A DNA stretch of 64,000 bases from Escherichia phage vB_EcoS_VAH1. How positions within the stretch are numbered: the first letter of the stretch is position 1; each line of letters starts with the position of its first letter. Positions 5,807-34,029 of the stretch are shown piece after piece. The stretch lies in sequence record MK373792.1. One strand, 5' to 3'. The position numbers and the translations under genes are program-made. The notes beneath the pieces were generated by a model. The model ran no database searches, was not told where the DNA came from, and was given only the letters and a program-made list of their open reading frames with translations.

Positions 5807-6041
5807 CTTTAAGAATATCCTCTACCATATCACAGGACTGTTGCAATTCGTCAGCAATACGTTTAATATCGGTTTTTGTTACTTTACCAACTAACATCAC
5901 CAGTAACATAGAAAAGATAATAAGTGGAACTGGAATAACAAATAAAGCTACCTTAACAACATTCTTTGGCGTCCATGTGTGGTACTTGGTAACCAGTACA
6001 CCAACCACAATCAAATAAAACGCTAGAATAAACATCATCAT
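5796..6041 (-). CDS. small membrane protein
   Basis: Two TM helices. Confidence 0.4.
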   Translation of the reverse strand: MMMFILAFYLIVVGVLVTKYHTWTPKNVVKVALFVIPVPLIIFSMLLVMLVGKVTKTDIKRIADELQQSCDMVEDILKDEA

Positions 6042-6319
6042 TTTTTAATCTCCGTAATTATCTGAGCACGCATCACTTTATTAGGTAATTTTGTATTCCC
6101 AGCTATTGCTTCAATATTGTTTAGTTTTTCTTTTAGAATATCTGAGCGTCTCTGTGCTAGTTCAATATCTTGTTCTTGTTCTATTAAGCGGCAGTGAAGT
6201 CCATCATTAGTAATAAGCATACTTTCCATGTTTTTTCGTGCGTTTACAATCCCAATAACTCCACCAATCGCTACTAGTGTAGTAAGAACTAGTAACCCAA
6301 TAAGAATTTCTGTAATCAT
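6038..6319 (-). CDS. membrane-anchored coiled-coil protein
   Basis: N-terminal TM then heptad-like region. Confidence 0.4.
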   Translation of the reverse strand: MITEILIGLLVLTTLVAIGGVIGIVNARKNMESMLITNDGLHCRLIEQEQDIELAQRRSDILKEKLNNIEAIAGNTKLPNKVMRAQIITEIKK

Positions 6320-6852
6320 TTATTTAATTCCTCTAAAGTAGGTAAGGGTTTTGTATGATCAAAAGTTTCTATAACAGCGTTAGGCCCATGTAGTTCTAAA
6401 CGTAGTTCATTAGCTCTTTGAACTGCCAACTCTAAATCTAGATACCTAAAGTAGCCTCCGTGTACTGTAATGCTTTCGGCGCTTCTGGCCTGGACTCTCC
6501 ATTGTTGTCGATCTTTTTTCCAGGTAACTCCTAAGTATCCCGAATTAGATTGAGCGATTCTGCTACGATTATTCTCTTGGGACGTACAATCTTTTAAATT
6601 ACACCATCTATTATCTTTTCTTATATTATTTAAGTGGTGTACTAGATTTGGAATATACCCCTCCATGTACAAAAAAGCTAACCTATGGGCTGCATATCTT
6701 TTTCTATTTATTCCAATAAATATATAACCATCCTTATCAGGACTACCAGCAATACTACCTGCTTTACCTCGCCCTCTACTGACTTTCCTTATAAATTCGC
6801 CCGTTTCCGGGCGGTATTCAAATAGCTCTTTTAATCTTTCTTGTGTTATCAT
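6316..6852 (-). CDS. HNH homing endonuclease (HNH_3/AP2-type)
   Basis: MITQERLKEL N-terminus, HRLAFLYMEGYIP...VHHLNN...N..NL motif; paralog of 10167..10706 and 62736..63269. Confidence 0.75.
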   Translation of the reverse strand: MITQERLKELFEYRPETGEFIRKVSRGRGKAGSIAGSPDKDGYIFIGINRKRYAAHRLAFLYMEGYIPNLVHHLNNIRKDNRWCNLKDCTSQENNRSRIAQSNSGYLGVTWKKDRQQWRVQARSAESITVHGGYFRYLDLELAVQRANELRLELHGPNAVIETFDHTKPLPTLEELNK

Positions 6853-7115
6853 TTTTTCTTTAATTGCTTAACTTCACGCTCAAAGCTAGCCGCTCGTCGT
6901 TCTGCCACTGCTTGATGCTCCTTAGCAAAGCGTGCCTCTTGTTTTGCTAAGTTAAAGGCCATAGCGTTCTTGTTAAGAGAATCGTACATCTTCTTCATCG
7001 CCGGAATAGACATTTTCATCAGTTGCCCCTCAAATCCTTGCATATCGAGGAGAATTGCCAGAACGTTAGCCATTTCATTTTTAGTCATGTTTTCCATTAG
7101 AATTTCCTCTCTCAT
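6849..7115 (-). CDS. hypothetical protein
   Basis: 88-aa ORF. Confidence 0.4.
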   Translation of the reverse strand: MREEILMENMTKNEMANVLAILLDMQGFEGQLMKMSIPAMKKMYDSLNKNAMAFNLAKQEARFAKEHQAVAERRAASFEREVKQLKKK

Positions 7116-7175
7116 TAATTTATGAACTTATTATACAGAATTTTAAGGCTTAAAGCAACTGAATTTTTTAATTAC

Positions 7176-28691: not shown

Positions 28692-29375
28692 TCATCTACT
28701 TTTCTTAATACTTTTAGGATCTTTCCCTGTTAGGGACTTATACCTTTTCCTTAATCCAGTATCAGATAATCCTAGTTCTTTGGAGGCACGAATCCAGGAA
28801 TATTTAGATACCCAGTACTCTATTTGCTCCACAGTAATATCTGGATTTATAGTTATCTCTTTAGGAGTACATGATTTACAGTGTGTTGCTCTTGAACTAA
28901 TTTCGCAGTGACAAATAGCACACGTATTTACAGCTCTTTCTGTATACCTGCCAATATTTTTGCCTGCATGAGTAGGTGTTAGTGCATGGCAATTTGGACA
29001 TAGGAGGGCTAAGTTATCCCATTCATTATTATAGTGATTTCCATCCTTGTGTTCGAGTTCTAAAGGAATTGGTTTGTCTAACCAACTTTCTAAGCCACAA
29101 CTCTCACACTTATGTGGTTTTAGCCCCTCGTTAAGAATTTTATTCTTTAGTTTATAGGAAGAAATAGGGCTGCCGTTATATAAATACTCTGTTGCAGACT
29201 TATATTTATTATCATACTGCCTATTCGCAGGAATAACTACTATTCCTAGTTTTCCTAAATATGCTTCCAAAGTGTTCGAGGAGCAGGATAGCATTCTTGC
29301 TATCTCTGCTTTAGATTTTCCCTGAGCTATCCACTGAGCTATTTCTTCCTTTCTATCTAGTATATCAGTTCTCAT
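28692..29375 (-). CDS. HNH homing endonuclease with N-terminal HTH and shared C-terminal module
   Basis: HKCESCG...LELEHKDGNHYNNEWDNLALLCPNCH; C-terminus near-identical to 21164..21745. Confidence 0.7.
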   Translation of the reverse strand: MRTDILDRKEEIAQWIAQGKSKAEIARMLSCSSNTLEAYLGKLGIVVIPANRQYDNKYKSATEYLYNGSPISSYKLKNKILNEGLKPHKCESCGLESWLDKPIPLELEHKDGNHYNNEWDNLALLCPNCHALTPTHAGKNIGRYTERAVNTCAICHCEISSRATHCKSCTPKEITINPDITVEQIEYWVSKYSWIRASKELGLSDTGLRKRYKSLTGKDPKSIKKSR

Positions 29376-29398: not shown

Positions 29399-29476
29399 TG
29401 GTGGCTCCCCGAGGATTCGAACCTACGTACCTTCCAGTTATGAGCTGGGTGCTCATACCATATGAGCTTGAGAACC
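29399..29476 (-). tRNA. tRNA-Met type (anticodon CAT); third CAT tRNA, could be the Ile2 (lysidine) species
   Basis: D-arm GCTC...GAGC, arm CCCAG-CTCATAA-CTGG, T-arm GTAGG-TTCGAAT-CCTCG. Confidence 0.55.
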
Positions 29477-29482
29477 AGAATT

Positions 29483-29571
29483 TGGCGGAAGAAGTGGGAA
29501 TCGAACCCACAAGGCTATATTTCAAACCGACAGATTAGCAATCTGCTGCAATACCGTTATGCTATTCTTCC
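29483..29571 (-). tRNA. tRNA-Ser (anticodon GCT), type II
   Basis: Perfect acceptor GGAAGAA/TTCTTCC, arm GCAGA-TTGCTAA-TCTGT, long variable arm. Confidence 0.6.
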
Positions 29572-29592: not shown

Positions 29593-30162
29593 TTAGAAAT
29601 TTAGCTTCATGGCAAGAAAATTTTTCAAGTTTTCGGTAGACATCTCATCCACATCTATAGGAGAAACAAACCCATTTAATTGTCTAGCAAACTTTTCACC
29701 AGCAGGATCATTATCCCCAACAGCTACCAATTTAAAAGGTAGTAATTTCAATTGCTTTAACAATGCTTTTCCGGGGGAAGAACCCAACATTGCCAGGGCT
29801 GGATAACCAGCGTTATGTAACGCAACTGCCTTAAATACAGATTCAGCAATCAATACTACTTTTTCATCTCCATTGAGAGTTTCTAGTCCCCATACACACT
29901 GTGTAGTAGAATAAGTAAAATATCTAGCTTCAAGGGGGCACTTACCATGACCTTTTGGAGCAGAAGGATTATAAGTCTGATAGCCTCTCAACATCCCAGA
30001 GAAGTCATACAATGGGACTGTTAGCCATCCTTCCGGGCTTAACCAGCAATGATATTTATCTGTATCAAACCCTCTAGATAAGAGATGTTCTGTTAGTTCA
30101 TCAACAGTCATACTAGATTCCTCTCTCAAATTTATAAATATATTATACAGAGAATTTAGCAT
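29593..30162 (-). CDS. stand-alone Toprim-domain protein
   Basis: VVLIAESVFKAVALHNAGYPALAMLGS...KLVAVGDNDPAGEKFA matches DnaG-type Toprim; no zinc finger or helicase part. Confidence 0.5.
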   Translation of the reverse strand: MLNSLYNIFINLREESSMTVDELTEHLLSRGFDTDKYHCWLSPEGWLTVPLYDFSGMLRGYQTYNPSAPKGHGKCPLEARYFTYSTTQCVWGLETLNGDEKVVLIAESVFKAVALHNAGYPALAMLGSSPGKALLKQLKLLPFKLVAVGDNDPAGEKFARQLNGFVSPIDVDEMSTENLKNFLAMKLNF

Positions 30163-30280
30163 TCAAGCAATTGAATTTTTTAACTTTTTAGAGGAAAATC
30201 ACAGGATGCTTAAGGGTAGCAGGTAAGTGGTCAGGACCGAAATTTGTGACCCCACTAAAAATCTGGGGGCAATTTTTAAA

Positions 30281-30320
30281 GACCCCTTGACATTTTCGCT
30301 GGGGTAGTGTAAAGTATATG
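30281..30320 (+). promoter_or_regulatory. sigma70-like promoter for the plus-strand island
   Basis: TTGACA at ~30281, ~17-18 nt spacer, TGn + TAAAGT; AGGAGG RBS before ATG at 30368. Confidence 0.5.
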
Positions 30321-30367
30321 TTATGGATGAGTGATCAAAGAGACACACATTTTCTATATACTAGGAG

Positions 30368-31360
30368 GTGTCAAAAATGACAGAAGAAGTAGCTAAGAGT
30401 CCTGAGACCGTCGCTAGCGTTGCAGCAGAACTGCACCGTCACGAGGAATCAGATAAGAAAAAGTGGGAGAAGGTCAGAGCCTACGAAGAAAAACATCGTG
30501 AACACGATGATGAAGAAGATGACGATGAGCATTGTCATAAATATGGAAAACATAAAATGCAAGAACCAGTAAACGTATTTACTAGTGGCTTCCCTGGCCT
30601 ACTTGGTGGTTACCCAGCAAACGCAAGTGCTTTCGGTGGCGAAGGTATGGGACTATTCGGAGCTATCCTAATCGGTGCTCTATTAACAGGCGGGTTCGGT
30701 GGTTTCGGTGGATTCGGTGGACGTGGTGTAGTTGGTGATGGTACCGCAGTTGATGCAGTACTTCAGAACCAAGATACCGCTAGTATTCTAGCAGCTATTA
30801 ACACTACTCGTACAGAAGCTAACCAGGGTACTGGAGCTGTTTTAAGCGCAGTTAACAATGGTTTTAGCCAGACATCCCAAAACCAGAGCCGTGATACTCA
30901 GTCTGTACTAACTACGATCTATGGTACAGGTGCTAATCTGTCTAATCAGATCTGCCAGGAAACTCGCAACGTTATTCAGGGTCAGTTCGATCTTTCTCGC
31001 CAGATTGATCAATCTTTCGCAGCTAACCAGATAGCTCGTGCACAAGATAAGTTTGATTCTGCACAGATCGCTTTCCAGCAGACTTTACAAACTAATAACC
31101 AGTTTGCCGCTGTTCAGGCTCAGATGTGTGCTAACCAGAACTCTCTGGAACGTCAGATCGCTGAATGTTGCTGTGAACTTCAGACTGCGATCGCTGGTGT
31201 AACTACTGCGCGTATTCAGGATGAGTTAGATGCATGTCGCCTACGTGAAGCAATCGCTGCGGGTAACGGTGCTAACGGTCAGGTAATTAATCAAATCGCT
31301 GTAAGTCTTGGTGCTATCACTCAGACTCTGGCTGGTCTGCAGGCTAAACTGCCGGCTTAA
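30368..31360 (+). CDS. acidic/His-rich N-domain + glycine-zipper TM segment + Gln/Asn/Ala-rich helical C-domain protein; function unknown
   Basis: DDEEDDDEH; GLFGAILIGALLTGGFGGFGGFGG; Q/N/T-rich tail with CCC cluster; codon usage unlike neighbours. Confidence 0.55.
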   Translation: MSKMTEEVAKSPETVASVAAELHRHEESDKKKWEKVRAYEEKHREHDDEEDDDEHCHKYGKHKMQEPVNVFTSGFPGLLGGYPANASAFGGEGMGLFGAILIGALLTGGFGGFGGFGGRGVVGDGTAVDAVLQNQDTASILAAINTTRTEANQGTGAVLSAVNNGFSQTSQNQSRDTQSVLTTIYGTGANLSNQICQETRNVIQGQFDLSRQIDQSFAANQIARAQDKFDSAQIAFQQTLQTNNQFAAVQAQMCANQNSLERQIAECCCELQTAIAGVTTARIQDELDACRLREAIAAGNGANGQVINQIAVSLGAITQTLAGLQAKLPA

Positions 31361-31381
31361 TATTAAGGGGAGGAGCCCATT

Positions 31382-31798
31382 ATGAGTAAATATGGTTTTG
31401 TAAATAACGGACTTAATCAAAGTATGGGCTCCCAGCAGCCCATTCCGGGTCTGGATAACCCCTACTTACAACAATTGCAACAGCGTTTAGCAGAAGCGCA
31501 ACAGATGCAGCAACAACTCCAGCAAAACCCTGGAAGTGTGAGTCCTATGCAAATGATGCAGCAAATGAGCGGGCAGTCGCAAATGCCTCAACAAATGCAG
31601 CAACAGGTGCCGCAGCAGCAAGCTCAGCAGCAAACCCAACAACCGCAGGTTTCTGCGGAAGGACAGGCAGTACTAGCCCTTTTCGAAGACTTCGCAAAGA
31701 CAGAGGATGGTAAGCAGCTTGTATCACTTATGGGTAAGTTTAATAGCTTCTGCCAAAGCCAGGTTGCAAAAGCTCAAAATAGTGGTAATAACTCCTAA
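31382..31798 (+). CDS. Gln/Met-rich low-complexity (prion-like) protein
   Basis: QQLQQRLAEAQQMQQQLQQNP...MQMMQQMSGQSQMPQQMQQQVPQQQAQQQTQQ; GGAGG RBS. Confidence 0.5.
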   Translation: MSKYGFVNNGLNQSMGSQQPIPGLDNPYLQQLQQRLAEAQQMQQQLQQNPGSVSPMQMMQQMSGQSQMPQQMQQQVPQQQAQQQTQQPQVSAEGQAVLALFEDFAKTEDGKQLVSLMGKFNSFCQSQVAKAQNSGNNS

Positions 31799-31807
31799 GG
31801 AGGAATT

Positions 31808-32002
31808 ATGTGTTGCAGAAAATCTGTTTCGTGCTGCCCAATGCCTGTAGCACGTTGTTGCTCTCCAGCAATGTTTACGCAAATACCGGCGTTCAATCCG
31901 TTTGCCTTTAAGCCTACTCTTATCCTGCCCCCTAGAGTAGATTTTCAGTCAAGATTGGCCTCCCGTATGGGTGGTTGCTGTAATAAGAGTATATGGTTCT
32001 GA
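31808..32002 (+). CDS. small Cys-rich protein (CC pairs)
   Basis: MCCRKSVSCCPMPVARCCSP...GGCCNK; AGGAGG RBS. Confidence 0.35.
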   Translation: MCCRKSVSCCPMPVARCCSPAMFTQIPAFNPFAFKPTLILPPRVDFQSRLASRMGGCCNKSIWF

Positions 32003-32018
32003 AGAACCAAACAATAAA

Positions 32019-32053
32019 GCCCCTAAGTCTTTCGACTAGGGGCTTTTCTTTTA
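32019..32053 (+). terminator. rho-independent terminator closing the plus-strand island
   Basis: GCCCCTAAGTC...GACTAGGGGC hairpin followed by TTTTCTTTT. Confidence 0.6.
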
Positions 32054-32060
32054 TCTTAAA

Positions 32061-32097
32061 TACAGAAAAGCCCTGCGCTCTCCAGGAAACGCAGGGC
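32061..32097 (-). terminator. rho-independent terminator for the SPFH gene (convergent)
   Basis: GCCCTGCG...CGCAGGGC 8-bp stem with T-run on the minus strand. Confidence 0.6.
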
Positions 32098-32122
32098 TTA
32101 TTTCAGATGTTACATGCGGGTA

Positions 32123-33070
32123 TTATTTATTACGCATATCCATAATCATTTGGCCATCATAGCCAGTGCCAACCACAGTCTGCGGTACACCACCTTGGTA
32201 TTTCTGAGCACGAATCATTTCAACTTCCAGTTGCTTCCAGCGAATCATCTCAGGAGTAATGGTACGTTGCAACGCGGCGTTAGCTTCAGCTTCTTTCTTA
32301 GCTGCGTACAGTTTGGCATCTGCGTCACGCTCATTGGCAATAGCTTGGTTATTACGAGCTTCGCGATCTGCTTCTGCTTGTTTAACCTTCTGCTGTGCTT
32401 CTTGTTCAACACGAGCCAGTTCAGCTTTCGCAGCATTAACTTGCTCTTCACGAACTTTGGTATTCTGTACCTGTTCCATGATTACCGGTGGCAAAGTAAT
32501 ATCCTGAAGGAATACCTGCTTAACTGTATAACCATATGGGCGTGCATACTCTTCAACTTCCTGTTGAATTGCAGTTTGCAATTGAGCCTGAATTTTAGCA
32601 TCAAACAAATCTTGTGCTTTAGGTACAGACTTACCAAACTCACGAATAGTAGACAGTAATTTTTCAGTTACATATTTATCTAGTGCTTGATCCTGGGTGC
32701 CTGCGTTAATACGGTTAATCGGTGCCTTAGAACCATCAAATTGTAACATAACAGTCAGGTCAACAGTGGATTTAAACTTATCTTGGCTAGGAACCTGAAG
32801 TTTATCTAATTTTACAGCAATATCTTTTGTACTAAAAGTATCGAAAGATGCAAATGGGTTTACAAGATGGAAACCAGGTAATACTGGGTTAGGATCTACT
32901 TTACCTAGAAATGTTTGGGTTTTAACCGTACCATCAGAAACAATAGTATATGAATTAAAAGCTAGGATTAAACCTGCTAAACCAACTACAGCACCAATAC
33001 CCCAACGTTTAATAGTGCGAATTACTTTTTGCTCAGAAGTCAGTTCTTTCATATTTTTAGTATTAAACAT
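32123..33070 (-). CDS. SPFH/Band-7 (prohibitin/stomatin/HflKC-like) membrane protein
   Basis: N-terminal TM (WGIGAVVGLAGLILAF), SPFH-like core, long Ala/Glu/Gln coiled-coil tail. Confidence 0.7.
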   Translation of the reverse strand: MFNTKNMKELTSEQKVIRTIKRWGIGAVVGLAGLILAFNSYTIVSDGTVKTQTFLGKVDPNPVLPGFHLVNPFASFDTFSTKDIAVKLDKLQVPSQDKFKSTVDLTVMLQFDGSKAPINRINAGTQDQALDKYVTEKLLSTIREFGKSVPKAQDLFDAKIQAQLQTAIQQEVEEYARPYGYTVKQVFLQDITLPPVIMEQVQNTKVREEQVNAAKAELARVEQEAQQKVKQAEADREARNNQAIANERDADAKLYAAKKEAEANAALQRTITPEMIRWKQLEVEMIRAQKYQGGVPQTVVGTGYDGQMIMDMRNK

Positions 33071-33104
33071 ATATTTCCTTTGTTTTAGTTACAGTTAATA
33101 AAAT

Positions 33105-33179
33105 TGGCCGAGGTGACAGGATTCGAACCTGCATAAAGGAATTTAGAAGACTCCTGCCTCTCCCTTAGACTACACCCCG
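33105..33179 (-). tRNA. tRNA-Arg (anticodon TCT)
   Basis: Acceptor CGGGGTG/CACCTCG, arm GGAGT-CTTCTAA-ATTCC, T-arm GCAGG-TTCGAAT-CCTGT. Confidence 0.55.
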
Positions 33180-33669
33180 TTTAAGTATTTTTAAGAACTC
33201 TCGTAAAAACTCTTAAAAATACAGACGATACCGGGAGAGTCATAAGTCTCACTCATTAAGTATTTCAAGACAAAATACAGTAACGTCTATTATTTTCCAG
33301 TTTAAGTCAGGGTGACTTAGTGGTTATGTCCTGCGGTATATTGAGGACTCGGTTAGGCTTTGGGGTCATGACTTCCCGCCTTTTGCTGCTACTCAACAGG
33401 AGTTATCGCGAATTACCTGTGCTATTGTGCACCATTAGTGACATCTCTCATGTCAGCATTTCCCACTTTGTGGATAGCTTGAAAAACTACTCCGATATGG
33501 AGAAAGAACTTCACTATCCTAGAATACCTTCTAAAGTTCTTCTTTAGCCTGGACATAGTTAAATCGTAATAAAACTATTCAGCAGACTGGTTGGTTAGTC
33601 TGGAACCAACTACCGCGTGGTTTAGGCAGTGCGCAACTAACCTCGGAAGCTTTTACGTTAAAAGCATCA

Positions 33670-33745
33670 GTTATCCAGTTCTTACCGACCGTAGGATTCG
33701 AACCTACATCTTCCACCAGTTACGGCTTGATAATACCAATTATAC
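33670..33745 (-). tRNA. tRNA-like element, identity unresolved
   Basis: T-arm GTAGG-TTCGAAT-CCTAC; acceptor GCCGTCC/GGTCGGT with one mismatch; no clean anticodon arm; no CCA. Confidence 0.3.
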
Positions 33746-34029
33746 TAGGACGGCAGTGTTACTACATAAGTGATTTCCACACCCCACTATCAGTAAATTA
33801 GAGAAGAGTTTAGGGGAGAGGTTTCAGACGCCTCATTTTACACGTTCTAGCCACTAACCGGGATTGCCGCCCCCTGTGTACTAGTTTTACAACTAACCCA
33901 CCGACTCTATTCAACGAATCTTAGTGCTCGACGCATCTTACATTAAGACAAGTTCAGCGTAATCGGCTCGCTGTTCCCTAATTTATGAATATATTATACA
34001 GAATTTAAAGGCATTTAGCAAATAAATTT

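Follow-up and report, generated by a model that had tools for sequence, protein, structure and literature searches.

The 64,000-nucleotide stretch of Escherichia phage vB_EcoS_VAH1 analyzed here (sequence record MK373792.1; the window refers to this whole stretch) carries three consecutive plus-strand genes, called P1, P2, and P3 below, within a minus-strand cluster of 21 tRNA genes. Our comparisons identify this three-gene cassette as a moron-like accessory operon, apparently exchanged horizontally between phages, because T5-like phages either have it or lack it as a whole and because the order P1-P2-P3-terminator recurs in unrelated phage backbones. The element is real, it could be delimited more precisely than before, and its annotation in T5 is already two decades old. 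Its interest comes from the breadth of the P1 family and from a conserved trio of vicinal-cysteine proteins. The region was 96 to 98% identical to that of many Escherichia and Salmonella T5-like phages, and the source genome is itself T5-like (Tequintavirus).

A first-pass annotation, made from the letters alone, had described a plus-strand island of three genes with a TTGACA promoter, strong ribosome-binding sites, and a terminator. All of these elements were found with the help of the open reading frame (ORF) listing, a promoter consensus scan, and RNA folding. Shine-Dalgarno sequences were read from the DNA at 30363-30368 (AGGAGG, for P1), 31369-31373 (GGAGG, for P2), and 31797-31803 (AAGGAGG, for P3). 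The first gene had been given as 30368..31360. Its end stands, and its start has to be moved: the GTG at 30368 shares sequence with the Shine-Dalgarno site, whereas the ATG at 30377, 8 nt downstream, gives the N terminus MTEEV, as in every homolog. We therefore took this ATG as the real start of P1, which makes a protein of 327 amino acids (aa). Behind P3, a hairpin at 32016-32046 had a folding energy of -19.3 kcal/mol (z = -5.2) and was followed by UUUUCUUUU. On the reverse strand, the energy was -20.8 kcal/mol, and U-tracts were present on both strands.

The same arrangement is annotated in T5. The T5 records list, in order, promoter P12, the hypothetical genes T5p075 to T5p077 (equal to T5.077 to T5.079), an "efficient bidirectional terminator" called ter1, and the Band-7 gene T5.080. 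P12 is annotated at the homologous position, 36 to 110 nt upstream of T5.077. P1 was 80 to 89% identical to its T5 counterpart, depending on the alignment method, P2 was 95% identical, and P3 was 100% identical; the gene order, the position of the promoter, the terminator, and the SPFH/Band-7 neighbor were all equal. No substantive difference was found; in T5, the genes carry nothing beyond a hypothetical-protein annotation, and P1 is divided between two ORFs in one record. A literature search found no paper that mentions the locus tags T5.077 to T5.080, and nothing relevant was found in the literature on the T5 SPFH protein, deletions of the tRNA region, or RNA sequencing.

T5 can grow lytically in the laboratory without the cassette: its viable mutant st0 has lost an 8,208-bp segment (GenBank accession no. 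AY734508) that contains the whole of it. Natural isolates lacking it were also found. P1, P2, and P3 occurred together in about 220 phage records, while the SPFH protein was found in 725, about 430 of them T5-like at an identity of at least 90%; thus, roughly half of the T5-like phages have no cassette. According to local alignment, the toprim gene and the SPFH gene of phages AKFV33 and JLBYU43 are about 95 bp apart with no cassette in between; JLBYU40 has the cassette. Homology to these phages ran through the SPFH gene and its terminator to about 32060 and resumed at or below 30144/30106 inside the toprim gene. The promoters, the three genes, and ter1 are therefore carried by an insertion/deletion polymorphism of about 1.9 kb. 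The first-pass annotation had proposed that clear homologs of conserved core genes, at the same position in all T5-like phages, would speak against a special module. Syntenic homologs do exist in T5, but they are neither universal nor core: the genes lie inside the st0 deletion and are missing from about half of the T5-like phages, which makes them accessory. In Epseptimavirus phages, the left-hand neighbors of the cassette are genes for a PnuC-like transporter and a NadR-like nicotinamide mononucleotide adenylyltransferase/ribosylnicotinamide kinase rather than the toprim gene, and the right-hand neighbors (SPFH and tRNA-Arg) are constant.

The cassette was also found in backbones unrelated to T5. 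Pseudomonas phage KPP23 carries versions of 320, 143, and 60 aa, with P1 44% and P2 46% identical to the VAH1 proteins. In two lambdoid contigs (L011 and L012), the cassette lies between the antiterminator Q gene and the holin-lysozyme-Rz genes, against the orientation of all its neighbors; the sole match bearing on their host was a terminase fragment, 73% identical, of a Pseudomonas phage. Diverged contigs of T5 size (P0020 and P0021) encode versions of 310 to 312, 106, and 65 aa, antiparallel to their surroundings and with no SPFH gene beside them. Morons are independent accessory transcription units of tailed phages (PMC3594210). The extra DNA relative to close relatives at a single site was found here between junctions at about 30145 and about 32060, and a hairpin terminator with a U-tract directly 3' of P3 was present in VAH1, L011, and KPP23. 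The base composition of the cassette was unlike that of its surroundings in the T5-like phages: its GC content was 46.7% against a background of 38.4%, a value reached by 0 of 295 windows of equal size. This deviation was confined to the T5-like version, as the cassette and its flanks had 49.3 and 48.9% GC in L011 and 58.4 and 56.2% in KPP23. Morons are further expected to be expressed from the repressed prophage to the benefit of the host; the T5-like phages are virulent, and the lambdoid version is suggestive in this respect.

The first-pass annotation had read both the GC content and the codon usage as different from those of the neighbors. The higher GC content was borne out; the foreign codon usage was not. 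GC at third codon positions (GC3) in P1 was 0.34, against a background of 0.31 ± 0.055, so that the excess GC of the gene comes largely from its Ala/Gly/Gln-rich composition. P1 has a bias toward GCT, GGT, and CGT and avoids AGA, AGG, and GGG, but the same bias occurs in the SPFH gene and looks like translational optimization rather than foreign usage.

In KPP23 (contig L002, 5266-5412, minus strand) and in L011 (4716-4919, minus strand), a divergent ORF with a double-CxxC zinc ribbon lies just upstream of P1. The two products, of 48 and 67 aa, respectively, are 43% identical, and the ORF does not occur in the T5-like phages. It is a possible regulator of the cassette.

P1 begins with a variable acidic/His-rich head containing one confident helix, which is followed by an EPVNVFT-G-PG motif, a glycine-rich hydrophobic segment (GLFGAILIGALLTGGFGGF, residues ~90 to 115; KD19, 1.72), and a helical domain rich in Gln, Asn, Ala, and Thr. 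An AlphaFold model (pLDDT, 69.6) placed helices at residues 133 to 163, 170 to 274, and 277 to 324. Among the seven cysteines of the protein are an invariant CCC at residues 264 to 266 and conserved single cysteines. The head, the hydrophobic segment, the helical tail, and the CCC cluster had all been noticed in the first reading of the sequence. P1 corresponds to PHROG 8119 (function unknown; E = 7e-203). An exhaustive profile search gave 457 cluster representatives of its family at an E value of ≤1e-3, and none of those sampled had a meaningful name. Among 98 diverse members, the CCC motif, usually followed by Glu or Asp, was present in 92 and the hydrophobic segment in 87, and every CCC motif was C-terminal to the segment. 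Lys or Arg followed the segment in 55 of the 98 members and preceded it in 24, and the N-terminal tails were acidic. Under the positive-inside rule, this charge asymmetry weakly favors a topology with the N terminus outside and the C terminus inside.

We propose a "CCC-helical" viral family, defined by a hydrophobic segment rich in glycine, a Q/N/S/T-rich helical domain, and a CCC-[ED] motif with a (T)R..(L/I) segment behind it. It takes in PHROGs 8119, 9288, and 16490, all of function unknown. Members were found in phages of Clostridium perfringens (hhalign probability for the Clostridium phage, 98.7%), Edwardsiella (99.1%), and Aeromonas, and as tandem paralogs on viral contigs of 199 to 473 kb and in giant-virus bins (96.8%). 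The family was found on viral contigs only: no member was detected in 100,044 representative genomes (two pattern-limited scans), in 72,556 plasmids, or in E. coli genomes, and the plasmid set held no copy of the cassette either.

Several of these distant members have a distinctive setting. On contigs of about 100 kb (L005 to L007, ~6001-6885), the gene of the P1 homolog P0029 follows large tail-fiber-like ORFs and contains in-frame TAG codons that are translated as Gln (GMGFL-Q-VTNAIQ), which indicates stop-codon-recoded gut phages. The CCC domain (AECCCELK) occurs as tandem paralogs on contigs of giant-virus size and in GVMAG bins (L038, 3538-6251; L040, 3932-5711; L043, 3552-5375). One paralog begins with a Gly/Tyr-rich segment, and others end in CPPPCPPPCPPPCP; L043 has ERxG-type repeats and gave subthreshold matches to apolipoproteins. 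In Clostridium-type phages, the P1-like gene belongs to a recurring four-gene set (L045, 4043-6190; L046, 3971-5719; L042, 4176-5959). Besides this gene, the set comprises a Q-rich protein of ~146 to 153 aa (PHROG 21718 in L045), an M/Q-rich protein of 75 to 86 aa (L045 and L046), and a small protein rich in beta structure, which gave a weak BclA_C match in L045. Q-rich proteins beside distant P1 relatives were considered as P2 homologs and ruled out by an hhalign probability of <1%.

P2 (PHROG 7894; function unknown) consists of 28% Gln and 7% Met, and the first-pass annotation had called it prion-like. This description did not hold, since the Q tract is a variable linker and the conservation lies in the segments that flank it. 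These are an N-terminal helix, NPYLQQLQQRLxEAQxMQQQL, and a C-terminal segment, EGQAVLALFEEFAKTEDGKQLVSxMGKFNSFCQS, with a single invariant cysteine (Cys124). The Q/P/M-rich linker between them varies from about 5 to 60 aa in the alignment and is nearly gone in homologs of 101 to 111 aa. Every contig on which a P2 homolog was found also had P1. The label "cAMP-dependent protein kinase catalytic subunit" (kapc) attached to P2 in several records was rejected, as the protein has 138 aa and matched no kinase family even at an E value of ≤1; the label probably stems from Q-rich low complexity.

P3 starts with MCC and has 8 cysteines in 64 aa, arranged as four CC pairs, with a Pro/Phe-rich middle part. 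Every sequence in the alignment has four pairs, three of which stand in invariant columns, and counterparts with the pattern MC(G)CC...CC...CC...CC were found in L011, L012, and, after correction of the reading frame, KPP23. The GenBank annotation of KPP23 places ORF072 at this position (L002, 6938-7132), and its product contains no cysteine; an overlapping ATG ORF at 6936-7118 on the plus strand encodes MCCNQPVPQCCGPF...RCCKKFDCC, the P3 counterpart. ORF072 thus appears to have been annotated in the wrong frame. P3 is kept in 221 phage records, where it is mostly unannotated, and only two clusters of it exist in a database of 5.8 billion proteins, one labeled "alpha/beta hydrolase like protein." The ratio of nonsynonymous to synonymous substitution rates (dN/dS) was 0.25 to 0.4 in its frame and about 1 in most other frames, which indicates that P3 is a real gene under purifying selection, though usually unannotated or misread in frame.

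The convergent gene next to the cassette encodes an SPFH/Band-7 protein with its own terminator (hairpin, -24.1 kcal/mol), as recognized from the letters alone. It matched Pfam Band_7 (PF01145) at an E value of 2e-17, with 64.2 bits against a gathering cutoff of 23.6. Like QmcA, HflK/C, and prohibitin, it has an N-terminal transmembrane helix (residues 25 to 43), a Band_7 domain, and a C-terminal helical region, and its nearest relative with a solved structure is E. coli QmcA (8z5g; E = 1.8e-6). It differs from them in being phage encoded and in having no NfeD-type partner. The first-pass annotation had suggested an SPFH scaffold as part of the module, but the distribution of this gene is independent of that of the cassette. 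The phage records with the SPFH protein number 725, T4-like phages of Klebsiella and Aeromonas among them, and those with the cassette about 222; the gene is not linked to the cassette outside the T5-like phages, with no SPFH gene beside the cassette of KPP23, L011/L012, or P0020/P0021; and it, together with its terminator in AKFV33, is kept where the cassette is missing (AKFV33 and JLBYU43). We therefore rejected it as a cassette component, and its distribution indicates an independent gene. The label "lipoprotein" given to it in RefSeq and in PHROG 200 was rejected as well, because a lipobox needs a cysteine and the protein has none.

As the best explanation of these observations as a whole, we tentatively put forward a mobile operon that encodes a membrane complex for the exclusion of other phages. 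P1 would be a bitopic inner-membrane protein, with its acidic N-terminal tail outward and its CCC helical domain in the cytoplasm, and the strong Shine-Dalgarno sequences and optimized codons suggest that it is highly expressed. Its CCC domain would assemble with soluble P2, through the one invariant cysteine, and with P3, through the four CC pairs, by thiol-thiol or thiol-metal bridges. Such a shared complex is suggested by the conservation of the CCC motif, of Cys124 in P2, and of the CC pairs in P3, and by the restriction of P2 to contigs with P1. Early in infection, or from the prophage in the lambdoid version, the complex would alter the inner membrane on its cytoplasmic side, and the altered membrane would block genome entry or the development of competing phages, as moron-encoded exclusion factors do. 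That the three proteins exclude competitors at the inner membrane is, by analogy with such factors, conceivable but doubtful. The first-pass annotation had guessed at exclusion, a pore-forming toxin, or membrane remodeling, all of which stay conjectural. On a broader scale, P1 may represent a large, undescribed, virus-exclusive family to which the phages of proteobacteria have added two vicinal-cysteine partners, giving a membrane machine held together by thiol or metal bridges, whose biochemistry would differ from that of every known exclusion, lysis, or remodeling system; this remains a speculative proposal.

Comparison with known exclusion systems gives both likenesses and differences. The moron gene 15 of HK97, which mediates superinfection exclusion at the inner membrane (PMC3594210), resembles the cassette in being an addition relative to related phages, in having a terminator of its own and, in the T5-like version, a putative promoter, and in encoding a product that is inserted (predicted, for P1) in the membrane. 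The GC content of the T5-like cassette above that of its surroundings, its exchange between unrelated phages, and the insertion of the lambdoid version between Q and the lysis genes, a classical location for morons, are further likenesses. In contrast to gene 15, the cassette comprises three genes, has no sequence similarity to gp15, occurs mainly in virulent T5-like phages under an early promoter, and matches its flanks in GC content in the lambdoid contigs and KPP23. T4 Imm, P22 SieA, and lactococcal Sie2009 are likewise small to medium-sized, membrane-anchored, nonessential phage proteins expressed early or from the prophage; unlike the cassette products, they act singly, have no cysteine clusters or soluble partners, and show no homology to P1.

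Several points weigh against exclusion by a membrane complex. The first-pass annotation had recognized none of the three proteins as a described phage function, and none could be assigned here: no significant match was obtained in Pfam, NCBIfam, PADLOC, or PDB, the PHROGs matched are of unknown function, and the literature was silent. Within Pfam and PHROGs, no similarity to known superinfection-exclusion membrane proteins was detected. To our knowledge, known exclusion proteins act alone, and the cassette is a three-protein system whose physical interaction is presumed. The predicted topology of P1 derives from a weak bias in charge. No prophage or chromosomal copy was found in the representative genomes (two pattern-limited scans) and no copy of the lambdoid version in complete E. 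coli genomes, which leaves expression from a prophage conjectural. A sigma-70 consensus promoter was matched only in the T5-like version, with none in L011 or KPP23. In addition, because relatives on giant-virus-sized contigs often have no membrane segment, the core domain of P1 may have a role more general than exclusion.

Among the other explanations, counterdefense or host takeover, in which an early membrane complex would neutralize host immunity or condition the envelope for the phage's own infection, seems unlikely. An early promoter in a virulent phage, patchy presence in close relatives, and exchange between phages are typical of antidefense accessory genes, and the cassette shows all three, the promoter as annotated in T5, along with the virus-only distribution of the P1 family; but no similarity to a known defense or antidefense protein was found, with no PADLOC-DB defense-system family matched at an E value of ≤1 by P1, P2, P3, or SPFH, and the lambdoid position opposite the late operon fits cargo expressed in the lysogen better. 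A coat for membrane maintenance or remodeling is likewise unlikely; here, the long amphipathic helices of P1 would cover the inner membrane in the manner of phasins, PspA, or apolipoproteins and keep up membrane integrity and the proton motive force during infection, possibly together with SPFH in the T5-like phages. Vicinal cysteines serve as ligands for As(III), Hg(II), and Cu(I) in ArsD, MerT, and metallothioneins, and the three proteins together contain 16 cysteines, including one CCC and four CC, with heads such as HHYHHHHHEH in close homologs of P1. The vicinal thiols and the His/Asp/Glu-rich head of the T5-like version could then bind soft metals or buffer or sense redox conditions. We consider such a role rather unlikely, as the His-rich head is lineage specific and missing from most of the P1 family, no metallothionein, Mer, Ars, or copper-chaperone family was matched, and a phage's need for such handling is not apparent.

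A regulator of lysis timing, holin- or antiholin-like, would fit a predicted single-pass membrane protein, the proximity of the cassette to the lysis genes in L011/L012, and the location of distant P1 homologs just after tail-fiber genes, a frequent site of lysis cassettes. We hold it to be improbable: the cassette lies on the strand opposite the lysis genes and has its own terminator, the promoter annotated in T5 is early, and a protein of ~300 aa with a large soluble domain is unlike holins, no family of which was matched. The neighborhood of tail-fiber genes, and the ability of Cys-rich proteins to cross-link particles, could also point to a virion or assembly component, which is very improbable given that T5 st0 makes viable particles without the segment, that the promoter is early and outside the late region, and that in KPP23 it is a neighbor and not the cassette ORFs that is labeled as a virion protein. 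A membrane fusogen of the HA2 or two-component spanin (Rz/Rz1) type, combining a fusion peptide rich in glycine with a coiled coil and a small Pro/Cys-rich partner, was suggested by GLFGAI, the six residues with which the fusion peptide of influenza HA2 also begins, by best PDB profile matches to HA/HA2 and spike HR1, and by P3, which is small and Pro-rich like o-spanins. It was largely refuted and is hardly credible. The PDB matches were nonsignificant (best E = 0.024), P1 had no heptad (3.5-residue) periodicity (the observed power was reached by 506 of 1,000 shuffles), P3 starts with MCC and has neither a signal peptide nor a lipobox, homologs occur in phages of Gram-positive Clostridium, although spanins belong to diderm hosts, and expression is early and accessory rather than late, with the cassette of T5 outside the lysis genes.

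Coordinates of the cassette and of the flanking features in the window
Feature	Position	Strand	Evidence or remark
tRNA-Ser	29483-29571	-	Left flank of the region
Variable segment, absent from cassette-less T5-like phages	30145..32059	.	Local alignment with AKFV33 and JLBYU43
Sigma-70-type promoter-like site, TTGACA-17-TAAAGT	30287..30315	+	Consensus scan, 10/12 positions; equivalent of T5 promoter P12
P1, 327 aa, T5.077 homolog	30377..31360	+	ORF, start corrected
P2, 138 aa, T5.078 homolog	31382..31798	+	ORF, GGAGG 8 nt upstream
P3, 64 aa, T5.079 homolog	31808..32002	+	ORF, AAGGAGG overlapping the P2 stop codon
Bidirectional intrinsic terminator at the end of the cassette (T5 ter1)	32016..32052	.	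RNA fold
Intrinsic terminator of the SPFH gene	32068..32099	-	13-bp stem and T-tract; backbone, not cassette
SPFH/Band-7 membrane protein, T5.080 homolog	32123..33070	-	Pfam PF01145; convergent
tRNA-Arg	33105-33179	-	Right flank of the region

The DNA around the cassette showed further features. Within a few bases of ter1, the T5 records annotate a "major single-strand nick 3, 32.6%" (consensus, 5'-N-Pu-pGCGC-N). Its position corresponds to the hairpin of the SPFH terminator, which contains GAGCGCAGG, so that, at the junction of the cassette, one fixed nick site of T5 and a transcription terminator fall together. The toprim or "DNA primase-like" ORF at 29593-30162 (minus strand) is listed with 189 aa. 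Its true start is probably an internal ATG at about 30111 (MTVDELTEHL), because the T5 and AKFV33 homologs have 172 aa and the homology to AKFV33 begins near 30106. Between tRNA genes at 28692-29375 (minus strand), an ORF of 227 aa encodes an HNH endonuclease-like protein with a CPNCH motif, a homolog of T5 hegA (T5.075) that is not present at this spot in JLBYU40. An Rfam scan of the region for known RNAs yielded only tRNAs and subthreshold noise. The tRNA matches included two tRNA-like sequences that were not in the ARAGORN output, at 29402-29476 (minus strand; 38.2 bits) and 33683-33754 (minus strand; 35.5 bits), where T5 has an annotated tRNA-Ile/Met and a pseudo-tRNA. The stretch at about 33180-33900 (minus strand) is the counterpart of the stable RNA "RNAX" of T5, which, according to the annotation, follows immediately after tRNA-Arg as transcription runs; Rfam gave no family in it besides the tRNA-like match.

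T5 is a model phage, and this strongly signaled and probably highly expressed operon has remained without an assigned function after 20 years of annotation. The present analysis corrects labels that have been copied between records, namely, kinase for P2, lipoprotein for SPFH, and alpha/beta hydrolase for P3. The search for island-free relatives that had been proposed from the first reading of the sequence turned up a clean absence at the same site in AKFV33 and JLBYU43. The P1 family, with several hundred clusters, spans very different viruses: its members come from phages of both Gram-negative and Gram-positive hosts, from recoded gut phages, and from genomes of giant-virus size. Three "hypothetical proteins" have thereby become a defined target, for which T5 st0, the wild type, and natural cassette-less relatives exist for direct tests.

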